From positions 416,001 to 480,000 of the forward strand of contig JAVVEA010000001.1 of NCBI GenBank assembly GCA_032250835.1: a stretch of 64,000 nt of DNA, in the 5' to 3' direction. Source of the DNA: a bacterium. Its GTDB lineage: Bacteria; SAR324; XYD2-FULL-50-16. Position numbers and translations under genes: made by a program. Positions 15,395 through 17,828 of this stretch are shown piece by piece. The notes under the pieces were generated by a model that was not told where the DNA came from, did no database searches, and saw nothing but the letters and a program-made list of their open reading frames with translations. Position 1 is the stretch's first letter, and each line of letters begins with the position of its first letter.

Positions 15395-15464
15395 AGGGAG
15401 CCTAGTTGGGGTTTCCCCTTTGTAACAAATCGACCTCAAGGCGGAAAGTACCAGCTTAAAAAAC

Positions 15465-15508
15465 AAAAAACCCGTCTCTTCCGTGCAGGCAGAAGAAACG
15501 GGTTTTTT
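15465..15508. terminator. Intrinsic terminator (potentially bidirectional) downstream of the FmdB gene
   Basis: AAAAAACCCGTCTCTTC-loop-GAAGAAACGGGTTTTTT. Confidence 0.8.
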
Positions 15509-15516
15509 GGGTTCCG

Positions 15517-15535
15517 AAAGACCAACCTGGTCCTT
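15517..15535 (-). promoter_or_regulatory. Bacterial SECIS-like hairpin
   Basis: Minus-strand RNA AAGGACCA-GGU-UGGUCUUU; the G-led apical loop starts 22 nt after the UGA at 15552-15550. Confidence 0.7.
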
Positions 15536-15753
15536 TAGCAGCCGCCAGCTCAGCTGAAGCCAGAGGAACCGCCAAAAGAAGGCGCTGAGCCGCCCGACCC
15601 ACCACCGCCACCAAAGGCGAAGGCACTCACCTCGCGGTGGGTTTCAGCGCTGCCGCATTGGGGGCAATTGAGGGGCGCGTCTTTCTCGTCGCCTTTGCGC
15701 AACTCGGTAAAATCGTCGCCGCAGGCCTTACAATGGTAATCAAACAGAGGCAT
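15535..15753 (-). CDS. FmdB-family zinc-ribbon protein, probable selenoprotein ending GFS-U-AGGC
   Basis: MPLFDYHCKAC...CPQC and a Gly/Ser-rich tail. TGA is followed in frame by GCT GGC GGC TGC TAA and a SECIS-like hairpin. Without recoding the CDS ends at 15550. Confidence 0.8.
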
Positions 15754-15781: not shown

Positions 15782-15823
15782 TAACTATATTCGAATATTA
15801 ATATATGTTAAAGGGCTTGGCAA
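15782..15823 (-). promoter_or_regulatory. sigma70-like promoter of the FmdB gene overlapped by an AT-rich palindromic operator
   Basis: TTGCCA(15823-18)-17 nt-TAATAT(15800-795). TATATT-N8-AATATA flanked by TAAC/GTTA overlaps the -10 and start site. Confidence 0.5.
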
Positions 15824-15901
15824 GACTTTTTTTGCCAGTCTATTCTAACCCAACCCCGACCTAGGGCTTAGGTAGGTGGTGGTGACGCTAAAGGGGGCAG
15901 G

Positions 15902-16381
15902 ATGATCCAGATAAATTCAGGCGGACAGACCGGGGTGGACCGTGGGGCCTTGGATGCGGCTTTAGAGTTGGGCTGGGCGGTCGGCGGATGGTGCCCCCAA
16001 GGCCGCCTGGCCGAAGACGGCCCCATAGAGGCCCGCTACGGGCTCAAGGAGCTACCCGGCGCAGGCTATGCCCAGCGCACGGTTAAAAATGTGGCCGACT
16101 CGCCGGCCACGGTGATCTTACACTTCGGCCCCCTACGCGGCGGGACGGCCTATACCGCCAAAGTGGCACGCCGCTTATCCAAGCCACTTTTATTGCTAGA
16201 CGCCCACAAACTGGATTTAGCTGAGCTGGTCGAAGGGTTTTATGCCTTCCATCTAGAGGTAACCGCCGCCGCTTACAACCTCGCCGGGCCCCGAGCCAGC
16301 AACCAGCCGAGGGCCCATGAGTTGGCGCGGCAGTTGGTCTTGGGCTTTGCGGCCCGCCTCAATACTGAAGACGGCGGCTAG
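15902..16381 (+). CDS. Putative molybdenum carrier (SLOG/YpsA-like) family protein
   Basis: NSGGQTGVDRGALD, GGWCPQGR, RTVKNVADS, GGTAYT, NLAGPRAS. Confidence 0.85.
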   Translation: MIQINSGGQTGVDRGALDAALELGWAVGGWCPQGRLAEDGPIEARYGLKELPGAGYAQRTVKNVADSPATVILHFGPLRGGTAYTAKVARRLSKPLLLLDAHKLDLAELVEGFYAFHLEVTAAAYNLAGPRASNQPRAHELARQLVLGFAARLNTEDGG

Positions 16382-16452
16382 CCAAGTTTGAATCATTGGC
16401 TTAAACTGGATTGAGGAGGAACAGGACCCCTCTTTTTAACCCCGGAGTCGTT

Positions 16453-16881
16453 ATGTCCCAAATCATTCCTTGCCCCGCTTGCCAAGCAAAAAACCGCGTC
16501 CCCGACGACAAGCCCGCCCAAGCGGGAAAATGCGGCCAATGTAAGTCACCCCTTTTTACGGGCCATCCAGTCAACTTGGACCTCAAAAGCTTTGACGCCG
16601 CTATCGCAGGCGACCTGCCGGTGTTGGTCGACTTTTGGGCCGAATGGTGTGGCCCCTGTAAAATGATGGCACCCGTCTTGGCTGAAGCCGCCCAGACCTT
16701 AGAACCTCGTTTACGCATCGCCAAAGTAGATACCGAAAAGGATCAAATCCTAGCGGCACGCTTTGGCATCCGCAGCATCCCGACCTTGGCCCTCTTTCGC
16801 CGCGGTCAGGAACTCGACCGGATCAGCGGAGCCATGCCGCTAGCCCAATTAAAGGCTTGGCTGGACCAAAAACTAGGCTAA
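16453..16881 (+). CDS. trxC: Thioredoxin 2 with N-terminal zinc finger
   Basis: CPAC...CGQC plus WAEWCGPC; start at ATG 16453 (GGAG RBS). Confidence 0.93.
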   Translation: MSQIIPCPACQAKNRVPDDKPAQAGKCGQCKSPLFTGHPVNLDLKSFDAAIAGDLPVLVDFWAEWCGPCKMMAPVLAEAAQTLEPRLRIAKVDTEKDQILAARFGIRSIPTLALFRRGQELDRISGAMPLAQLKAWLDQKLG

Positions 16882-16916
16882 GCTGCAAACCGCTCTTTGG
16901 GAACTAAACCAAATAC

Positions 16917-16945
16917 TTGTCAATTAATACGGCAAAGGGTATGTT
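16917..16945 (+). promoter_or_regulatory. sigma70-like promoter
   Basis: TTGTCA-17 nt-TATGTT upstream of the rhodanese-ferritin gene. Confidence 0.5.
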
Positions 16946-16988
16946 CGTTACCTAATATCTGGCCTTATATCGTTCTTTTCGGTCTTTT

Positions 16989-17828
16989 ATGAAGTGGAAT
17001 GACATCATCACACCGATCGAGCATTTTTCTGCTAAGGAGATGGCGGATTTTATGCGCCAATCACCGCTAGGTAGCTATGAGCTGCTTGATGTGCGCCAGC
17101 CGGCTGAATACGCTGAAGGCCATCTCCCGGGCGCTAGATTGATCCCCTTGGACCAGTTGTTACAGGGCCAGTTCGACTTCGACCCCAGACACACCTTACT
17201 GATCTACTGCCGAGCCGGTAACCGCAGCCTAGCGGCGGCTCAGTACCTAAACCAAATGAACAGCGGTCGGGTGGTCAATTTGGTGGGCGGGATTATGGCC
17301 TGGGAAGACAAGATGGCTACCGGACCCTACGAGCACAACCTCCAGCTCTTTGATCCAGAAACGGAATTTGAAGACGCCCTGTCGTTGGCTTATGCCATGG
17401 AAGAAGGGTTGCGGCGCTTTTATATTTCCTTAGGTGAACGGATAACGGACCCGAAGAGTCAGAAGTTATTAGAGCAACTGGCGGAATTTGAGGAAAACCA
17501 CAAAGCCTCTTTAGATGCCAGCTCCAATTTACCCCAAGGCCCAAAAACCCACCCGTTGCACGGCAAAATTCTAGAAACCGGAAGTCTGGTGGACGAGCTC
17601 TTGGGGCGGGTGGAGTGTTTCATCAACGGCCCGCTGGACGTTTTTGACTTCGCCATGGGGATTGAGGCCCAGGCCTTTGATTTTTATATGCGTCTTAGCT
17701 ACCGCGCCGAAGAAGAAGAATCCTCGCACCTCTTCCGCGACCTAGCCGAAGAAGAGTTAACCCACCTAGACCTGTTGGTCCAAGAAAGTAAGGCATTCCA
17801 CCGCTCAATGAACTCCGGCCTGAACTAA
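16989..17828 (+). CDS. Rhodanese domain fused to rubrerythrin/ferritin-like di-iron domain
   Basis: LLDVRQPAEY, GHLPGA, YCRAGNRS (active Cys); then E..FY/EENH and E..FY/ELTH pairs. Confidence 0.88.
   Translation: MKWNDIITPIEHFSAKEMADFMRQSPLGSYELLDVRQPAEYAEGHLPGARLIPLDQLLQGQFDFDPRHTLLIYCRAGNRSLAAAQYLNQMNSGRVVNLVGGIMAWEDKMATGPYEHNLQLFDPETEFEDALSLAYAMEEGLRRFYISLGERITDPKSQKLLEQLAEFEENHKASLDASSNLPQGPKTHPLHGKILETGSLVDELLGRVECFINGPLDVFDFAMGIEAQAFDFYMRLSYRAEEEESSHLFRDLAEEELTHLDLLVQESKAFHRSMNSGLN

Follow-up and report, generated by a model that had tools for sequence, protein, structure and literature searches.

The feature under study lies in a window of 64,000 nucleotides, "window" meaning the whole stretch of DNA that was analyzed, and its parts are compiled in Table 1. 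A minus-strand open reading frame (ORF) starts with an ATG at 15753 and runs through 67 codons to a Gly-Phe-Ser (GFS) end, followed by a TGA at 15552-15550, the codons for Ala-Gly-Gly-Cys, and a TAA at 15537-15535. The first-pass annotation had described this reading frame, a hairpin with a GGU loop 22 nt behind the UGA and a terminator, and all of these elements were present as described. The hairpin is located almost wholly 3' of the TAA, with the last A of this codon as its first base. A clear Shine-Dalgarno sequence before the ATG was not found between 15745 and 15775; the start is nonetheless fixed by the homologues, which share the MP(L/I/M) start of the window gene and have their stop 1 to 4 codons past the TGA.

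Table 1. Positions of the parts of the predicted selenoprotein gene and of its surroundings in the window
Feature	Position	Strand	Basis or remark
Full gene read through the UGA: predicted 72-aa FmdB-family zinc-ribbon selenoprotein, end GFS-U-AGGC	15535..15753	-	true stop TAA
Zinc-ribbon domain, residues 1-51, CxxC-x18-CxxC (C8, C11, C30, C33), all Cys	15601..15753	-	TIGR02605, PF09723
Flexible Gly/Ser-rich linker with conserved G-F-x at its end	15553..15600	-	pLDDT 44-51; ends of homologues
In-frame TGA, predicted Sec68	15550..15552	-	TGA in 95/95, 58/58, and 39/41 homologous ends; orthologs with TGY (Cys)
Read-through peptide Ala-Gly-Gly-Cys	15538..15549	-	translation; post-UGA codons of homologues vary synonymously
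SECIS-like hairpin, 8-bp stem, GGU loop from 15527, 22 nt after the UGA	15517..15535	-	fold; fit to bSECIS model; covariation in relatives
Intrinsic terminator-like hairpin, 20-pair stem plus U-tract	15464..15509	-	z -5.7; 0/200 shuffles as stable
Sigma-70-like promoter, 10/12, consensus match only	15784..15811	-	
Divergent neighbors: cpYpsA SLOG protein, thioredoxin TrxC, rhodanese-rubrerythrin fusion	15902..17828	+	context; functional link not implied

The product was assigned to the FmdB family by its scores of 65 bits against TIGR02605 (residues 1-51, cut-off 31.3) and 52.4 bits against PF09723 (Zn_ribbon_8, cut-off 34.4) and by its CxxC-x17/18-CxxC pattern. Among named sequences, its closest homologues come from Ca. 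Lambdaproteobacteria and SAR324, so that the host probably belongs to SAR324. An AlphaFold2 run on an alignment of 10 rows, with U modeled as C, yielded a three-strand ribbon in residues 1-41 (pLDDT 80-86) and an unstructured tail (pLDDT 44-51), and no secondary structure past residue 41 was present in this model. A fold search with the model returned weak matches to zinc ribbons and rubredoxins and nothing at E<=0.001. The ribbon is predicted to bind zinc. The genome contains a second FmdB-family gene (L050, G000:C20:7906-8127, minus strand) of the LKGGGWY class, with a Cys-rich tail, a TAA stop, and no SECIS element.

The first-pass annotation had named a search for selA, selB, selC, and selD as a check of its proposal that the UGA is read as selenocysteine (Sec). 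In the host genome (3.66 Mb, 97% complete), all four were found above their cut-offs, with 483 bits for selA, 281 bits for selB (320 with the neighboring stretch), 364 bits for selD, and 64.5 bits for the tRNA-Sec gene selC. The selD gene itself (L018, G000:C33:93520-94443, minus strand) contains an in-frame TGA in a C-G-U-A-A-K motif and a hairpin with a GGUC loop. Outside the window but on the window's contig, a gene for an ArsC-family selenoprotein with a U-x-x-C motif (L218:497-832, G000:C11:565796-566131, plus strand) matched the known family NF041106 with 116.7 bits, and its SECIS element has a 7-bp stem and a GGU loop. Both hairpins have the shape of the window hairpin, with their GGUC and GGU loops at 21-23 nt. 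A genome-wide hunt for Sec genes with a filter of our own gave 39 mostly implausible candidates, missed SelD, and contained one candidate confirmed by its family; the result is not a selenoproteome.

The same genome bears on the possibility that the TGA codes for Trp, Gly, or Cys, either by a changed genetic code or by leaky read-through. A Trp at the site in 5 of 263 database homologues would agree with this but probably results from gene calling with code 4. Against it, TGA ends 707 of the 2235 long ORFs of the host, the only tRNA with a UCA anticodon found at the default threshold is the tRNA-Sec, and orthologs have a Cys at the site. Such a reading is extremely improbable.

Conservation of the TGA was evaluated in three sets of relatives. 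Searches of 41 and 88 SAR324 genomes led to 56 distinct family ORFs that were parsed. A total of 36 of them end with F/Y-x or GG, 35 before a TGA and one (L076) before a TAG, while the stops of the other 20 are distributed over TAA (9), TGA (7), and TAG (4). Five further SAR324 loci, which the pattern had missed and which were parsed separately, contributed four TGA tails (L039, L062, L069, and L075) and one GG-TAG end (L081), so that 39 of 41 SAR324 tail ends in total have the TGA. The two GG-TAG genes represent a Cys-rich paralog and occur in genomes that also have a copy with a TGA tail. In L081 (G006:C5:95408-95623, plus strand), a TGA replaces the last Cys of the second CxxC in addition to the GG-TAG end, and this gene is either a form with Sec in the ribbon or a broken gene.

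The second set came from a codon-blind scan of GTDB genomes for a ribbon and a C-x3-G-F pattern, with the following codons unnamed, which gave at least 120 loci. Ninety-six of these end with C-x3-G-F-x, and a TGA follows in 95 of the 95 readable ones among the matches listed (one of the 96 is cut by a contig end, and L175 is the same gene as L036). A second stop occurs within four codons in all 95 tail loci listed and is a TGA in 45, a TAA in 32, and a TAG in 18 of them. The other 24 GTDB loci among the matches listed end with TGA (12), TAA (6), or TAG (6), and two of these, L145 and L161, look like tail variants excluded by the rule. The background in the same GTDB loci was 132 TGA in 262 stops. 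The GC content of the tail set ranges from 0.37 to 0.75, and the 80 titled loci belong to Acidobacteriota, Desulfobacterota, KSB1, Zixibacteria, Calditrichota, Marinimicrobia, Ignavibacteria, Fibrobacteraceae, Nitrospinota, and others. A third, likewise codon-blind scan of metagenome contigs for C-x3-G-T gave 74 loci; 58 have this end, with a TGA in 58 of 58 and a second stop within four codons in 53. The stops of the remaining 16 metagenome loci are TGA (6), TAA (5), and TAG (5), and 11 of the 16 have a Cys at the site. Viral contigs gave no match to the GFx pattern. Altogether, the form with Sec in the tail recurs in at least 190 loci.

Four genes, L262, L278, L145, and L161, have other tail wordings such as KKFT, TRST, or GFGFT, yet also a TGA, 1 to 4 codons, and a second stop, which indicates that the subfamily is wider than the two search patterns. 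In four GGT-TGA members (L221, L239, L264, and L276), the read-through is longer than four residues and runs into the hairpin.

The first-pass annotation had also suggested aligning homologues for a UGA or Cys at this position, and both occur there. Besides the TGA counts given above, Cys is found at the Sec position of orthologs as GFS-C (L153 and L168), FG-C (L038 and P0026), and GGT-C (the 11 metagenome loci), and the nearest neighbors of L153 and L168 are genes with TGA tails. In 124 of 130 cases, an Ala or Gly follows the UGA, with all four codons of each in use, and a Ser following the Ala in the read-through is encoded by TCN as well as by AGY codons. Similarity past the UGA is thus present, but over 1 to 4 residues only. 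Selection acts on the read-through. New selenoprotein families should rest on at least ten examples that all have a TGA at the site, according to the portion of the Haft and Gwadz preprint used here, and the codon-blind figures are 95 of 95 (GTDB, among the matches listed) and 58 of 58.

The distribution of the Sec machinery agrees with this pattern. The selA gene was present in 90 of the 96 GTDB tail genomes, and five of the other six contain a tRNA-Sec above the cut-off; in the sixth, G207 with the tail gene L177, whose completeness is not given, no selA and no tRNA-Sec or selB above the cut-off were found. All 25 SAR324 tail genomes searched, out of 39, contain selA. Since selA was also present in 16 of the 24 genomes of non-tail loci, this co-occurrence is supportive but not decisive.

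Evaluation of the hairpin as a SECIS element needs to consider how often such structures occur by chance. A hairpin was scored as positive when it had a stem of at least 5 bp, an energy of -4 kcal/mol or lower, a G among the first two loop bases, and a distance of 12-30 nt from the codon. The window hairpin alone is at the chance level: the 35-nt fold has a z of -0.70, 47 of 200 shuffled sequences were equally stable, and 61 of the 707 ordinary TGA stops of long host ORFs (about 9%) passed the same test. The bSECIS model as given in the relevant part of PMC13188914 contains a stem of 4-16 bp, a loop of 3-9 nt with a G in the first two bases, and a distance of 16-37 nt from the UGA, and the geometry of the window hairpin (8 bp, GGU, 22 nt) is within these limits. 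Its energy is -7.2 kcal/mol bare and -7.9 kcal/mol with two flanking bases and is thus borderline compared to a model limit of -7.5 kcal/mol.

Among the tail genes, 79 of 95 listed GTDB, 32 of 35 SAR324, and 51 of 58 metagenome loci passed the hairpin test, compared to 5 of 24, 0 of 21, and 2 of 16 of the other family members, respectively, and 278 of 2600 shuffled sequences; the 35 SAR324 genes had been prefiltered for a TGA, and the GTDB and metagenome sets had not. The strict test was failed by 16 of the 95 GTDB tail loci. When the 35 SAR324 genes were aligned with MAFFT, each of the 7 stem pairs was seen to vary on either side, and 80% of the cells of the stem are paired, versus 64% after shuffling and 21-44% after sliding. 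These figures lean favorable because the alignment contains several misaligned rows and the structure had been derived from the same sequences. The combination of a TGA, a short read-through, a second stop, and a hairpin is conserved across the relatives beyond chance, and it is this comparative conservation, as far as sequences tell, and not the hairpin alone that decides for the Sec reading. The first-pass annotation had offered homologues lacking the hairpin or a downstream xGGC as grounds for dropping its proposal. The hairpin is conserved; the xGGC end is present in only 4 of 39 SAR324 tail genes.

Alternatively, the TGA may be the true stop, with the hairpin as an unrelated conserved element of the 3' untranslated region and the second stop as a backup. 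This would agree with the chance-level score of the window hairpin, with the Sec machinery undetected in G207, and with the database proteins, since all those examined end at the TGA or continue with a W. A stop codon, on the other hand, should drift among TAA, TAG, and TGA in the way seen for the paralogs and for the second stop, yet TGA was found in 153 of 153 codon-blind cases listed. The codons behind it vary synonymously, orthologs have a Cys at the site, and both the sequence of the loop and its spacing agree with the bSECIS model. A true stop is accordingly very improbable. With the full Sec machinery in the host, a TGA that is fixed across lineages, Cys orthologs, and a covarying hairpin, the window gene is very probably a real selenoprotein gene with its TGA read as Sec, in agreement with the first-pass annotation, and decoding would almost certainly proceed by the standard bacterial SelB/SECIS recoding.

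The recoding mechanism itself is ordinary. SelB, bound to the hairpin downstream of the UGA, would deliver the Sec-tRNA(Sec), and the ribosome would add Sec and four more residues before stopping at the TAA. When selenium is absent, termination at the UGA would result in the 67-aa form as it stands in the databases. Unusual for recoding are the position of the SECIS element past the true stop and the fact that a decoding failure removes just five residues.

The first-pass annotation had further proposed a U-x3-C motif on a flexible Gly/Ser tail. This motif exists in the window protein, and low pLDDT values agree with a flexible tail, but it is not a motif of the family. Among the 39 SAR324 tail genes, 19 have a Cys only upstream of the Sec, at a distance of 5-12 residues, 10 have one only downstream, 2 in both places, and 8 in neither; any Cys after the Sec was found in 12 of the 39. 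Most tail members end with U-A-S or U-G and have the Cys 5-12 residues before the Sec. In the smaller set of 35 SAR324 loci, the numbers were 18 upstream only, 9 downstream only, 0 both, and 8 neither, and the strict either/or of upstream and downstream Cys that these numbers might suggest was broken by L069 and L075, two of the four tail loci parsed separately, which have both. The xGGC end was rejected as a family motif since the read-through endings of the relatives differ. In the GTDB set, C-x6-U is present by construction of the search pattern. U-x3-C is a local variant, most relatives having C-x6-U, and the split of the Cys positions in the 39 genes indicates that the variant is one local way for a thiol to stay close to the Sec. 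In the window protein, Sec68 probably pairs with Cys72.

The prediction that standard gene callers would truncate such proteins was borne out by the database homologues. A profile matched 1065 representatives at E<=1e-10, and the C-terminal ends were taken from the best 150 of 1065. Of 263 best database homologues, 177 end with F/Y-x and 43 with G-G/T/A, 5 continue with W, and none contains U. In total, 220 of the 263 end where readable DNA always shows the Sec codon. No model for the Sec tail in NCBIfam release 20 matched the window protein.

FmdB-family proteins had been reported as selenoproteins, as the first-pass annotation stated, but the published Sec is at another position. Two FmdB selenoproteins were predicted from GOS reads by Zhang and Gladyshev in 2008 (PMC2398784, in the sections available, as for all PMC-numbered sources here). 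They share with the window gene the TIGR02605/COG2331 zinc ribbon, a UGA-encoded Sec, and a bacterial SECIS element, but in these two single reads Cys8 and/or Cys11 of the first CxxC is exchanged for Sec, in a paralog of the LxGxGWY class (Dataset S2 of PMC2398784), and the form is listed as U/CxxU in PMC9312934 and as UxxU in PMC13188914. In the window form, by contrast, the ribbon is all-Cys, the Sec belongs to the C-terminal tail, the SECIS element follows the stop, and at least 190 loci are known. An assignment to the published CxxU/UxxU subfamily was therefore rejected, C8, C11, C30, and C33 all being Cys. Members of TIGR02605/PF09723 without Sec have the same domain and a low-complexity Gly/Ser tail, many of them a Cys-rich one, and differ from the Sec-tail form, which ends with G-F-x-U or G-G-T-U plus 1-4 residues and is cut at the UGA in databases.

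Other small selenoproteins resemble the window protein in part. The dual CXXC small selenoprotein NF041197 (OS_HP3; "hypothetical protein DW" of deep-Sep) likewise is small with four Cys and one Sec, but its Sec is located between the two CxxC motifs (Table S2 of PMC12013277, as available); identity with this family was rejected at 12.8 bits versus a cut-off of 40, and there is no TGA between the motifs of the window gene. In the accessible part of the Haft and Gwadz preprint, SaoC (NF040734) and KCU-star (NF033934) also have a Sec at or next to the C terminus, are truncated in databases, and use a GGU-loop SECIS element that is mostly outside of the ORF; they differ by a Cys-Sec dipeptide, unrelated sequences, dedicated operons, and no zinc ribbon. 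The "FmdB" selenoproteins of PMC11227280 and PMC4807772 are subunit B of formylmethanofuran dehydrogenase, a homonym, and were discarded.

The tail form is absent from Table 1 (119 families) in the available text of the 2026 review PMC13188914, which contains only the form with Sec in the first CxxC, as do the accessible sections of the 2022 review PMC9312934. It was not found in the available portions of the deep-Sep study (PMC12013277), the Olavius paper (PMC1976440), or the Haft and Gwadz preprint, and a full-text literature search for FmdB, TIGR02605, or zinc ribbon together with selenoprotein gave no FmdB protein with a C-terminal Sec; Haft and Tolstoy 2025 was covered only through the table in PMC13188914. 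The Sec-tail form is thus apparently an uncatalogued, widespread subfamily of a family already known for Sec at another position. A Sec near the terminus, a low-complexity tail, and a SECIS element outside of the ORF represent a blind spot of methods based on Sec/Cys alignments, and corrections would be required both in the counting of selenoproteomes and in the way a large family is annotated.

To understand the possible function, these data can be combined with the gene neighborhood. A fixed operon around the tail genes was not found. At least one of the neighbors listed below occurs in 28 of the 62 tail loci with long flanks versus 2 of 18 non-tail loci; the list was taken from the tail loci themselves, and related loci are not independent. 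The two non-tail loci are those of the Cys orthologs L153 and L168, arranged as ArsR-thioredoxin-FmdB. Neighbors in the 62 tail loci are DUF302 (17), ArsR/SmtB (11), DUF6132 (9), thioredoxin-like proteins (6), and a YgaP/RND region (6), followed by rhodanese, TauE, OsmC, and DsbD (2 each) and a CoA-disulfide reductase-like protein and a heavy-metal ATPase (1 each). The layouts include rhodanese-DUF6132-thioredoxin-DUF302-FmdB in Calditrichota, AcrB-YgaP-PII-like-ArsR-FmdB-DUF302 in Thermoanaerobaculia, and FmdB-DUF6132-DUF302-TauE in L160. Listed neighbors are absent from 34 of the 62 GTDB tail loci and from 30 of 35 SAR324 loci. The five SAR324 loci that have them include the window with its divergent operon for cpYpsA, TrxC, and the rhodanese-rubrerythrin fusion, a layout that is partly kept in L021 and L024.

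ArsR-type sulfane-sulfur sensors regulate genes for rhodaneses and disulfide reductases and are reset by TrxC (PMC9995734 and PMC10044876, as available), and DUF302 is present in sox clusters (PMC5037610, in part). The SqrR/BigR operator is ATTC-N8-GAAT (PMC9774250, available section). Membership in this sulfane-sulfur regulon through an operator of the gene's own was not supported, since the operator was not enriched in the 120 nt upstream of the gene, with 5 of 95 sequences versus 2.8 after shuffling and 4 of 36 versus 2.5, and other spacings did as well.

The Sec coding, the SECIS element, the fold, the disorder of the tail, and the bias of the neighborhood are supported by computation. The function is inferred: the tail may be a tethered redox or sulfane-sulfur handle in thiol/sulfane-sulfur homeostasis, an assignment held with slightly less than even confidence. 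The product would consist of a Cys4 zinc ribbon as a structural or docking module and a disordered Gly/Ser arm that carries the selenol at the tip and in most cases one Cys close by. This arm would cycle between selenol/thiol and a selenenylsulfide or seleno-persulfide, serve partner proteins of sulfur/thiol-stress operons, and be re-reduced by thioredoxin; zinc binding, redox chemistry, and partners are all proposed on this basis. A selenol on a flexible tail tip with a nearby Cys is also found in the Sec arm of mammalian thioredoxin reductase and in the disordered Sec tails of SELENOS and SELENOK. These proteins are eukaryotic, with unrelated folds and another SECIS type, and serve as a works-like analogy that claims no homology. 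More specifically, a widespread subfamily may have been missed in which a 70-aa zinc-ribbon carrier uses the terminal selenol of its disordered arm, preceded or followed by a Cys, as a catalytic sulfane-sulfur shuttle in ArsR/DUF302/rhodanese/thioredoxin operons, missed because the Sec is 1-4 residues from the C terminus and the SECIS element is in the 3' untranslated region. This version is tentative and on balance doubtful.

A decoded Sec could instead make the tail a ligand for soft metals or metalloids (Cu, Hg, As, or Cd), with the protein acting as a chaperone or sensor and not in thiol/sulfur redox reactions. The ArsR/SmtB genes in 11 of 62 loci, the single heavy-metal P-type ATPase, and the RND efflux genes of the Thermoanaerobaculia loci are consistent with this, as are the all-Cys relatives with Cys-rich tails and the link between CU motifs and heavy-metal handling made in the available part of the Haft and Gwadz preprint. 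The commoner neighbors, which are thioredoxins, rhodanese, TauE, YgaP, OsmC, the CoA-disulfide reductase-like protein, and DUF302, point to sulfur/thiol chemistry, however, and in many members the Sec is accompanied by at most a single thiol, which makes metal binding rather unlikely.

The position of the Sec 1-4 residues from the end, which leaves the folded domain intact when decoding fails, could also indicate a regulatory or storage role. The long and the short form would then follow the selenium supply, with the ribbon as a switch, carrier, or sink, or SelB on the hairpin in the 3' untranslated region would tune the next gene. The SECIS element outside of the coding region, the family label "putative regulatory protein," and a next gene 30-130 nt downstream in several operons fit this possibility. 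In the window, however, a terminator follows the gene; selenium-pathway genes were not found among the recurrent neighbors; and the Cys orthologs L153 and L168, which have no second stop, keep the same ArsR/thioredoxin context, which argues that chalcogen chemistry matters and not selenium sensing. Such a role is thus quite unlikely.

Since Sec marks a chemically active residue, a family without an assigned function becomes testable, using a small soluble protein and a cultured carrier, Desulfocarbo indianensis (L140). If the reading as a sulfane-sulfur shuttle is true, the functionless "FmdB regulatory protein" family would become accessible to biochemical work for the first time. Upstream of the window gene, an AT-rich divergent promoter region at 15790-15840 contains five sigma-70-like matches versus 0.2 expected, a 12-bp perfect palindrome at about 15791-15802, and an inverted repeat with 9-bp arms at 15817-15838, and the palindrome and the inverted repeat are possible operator sites.
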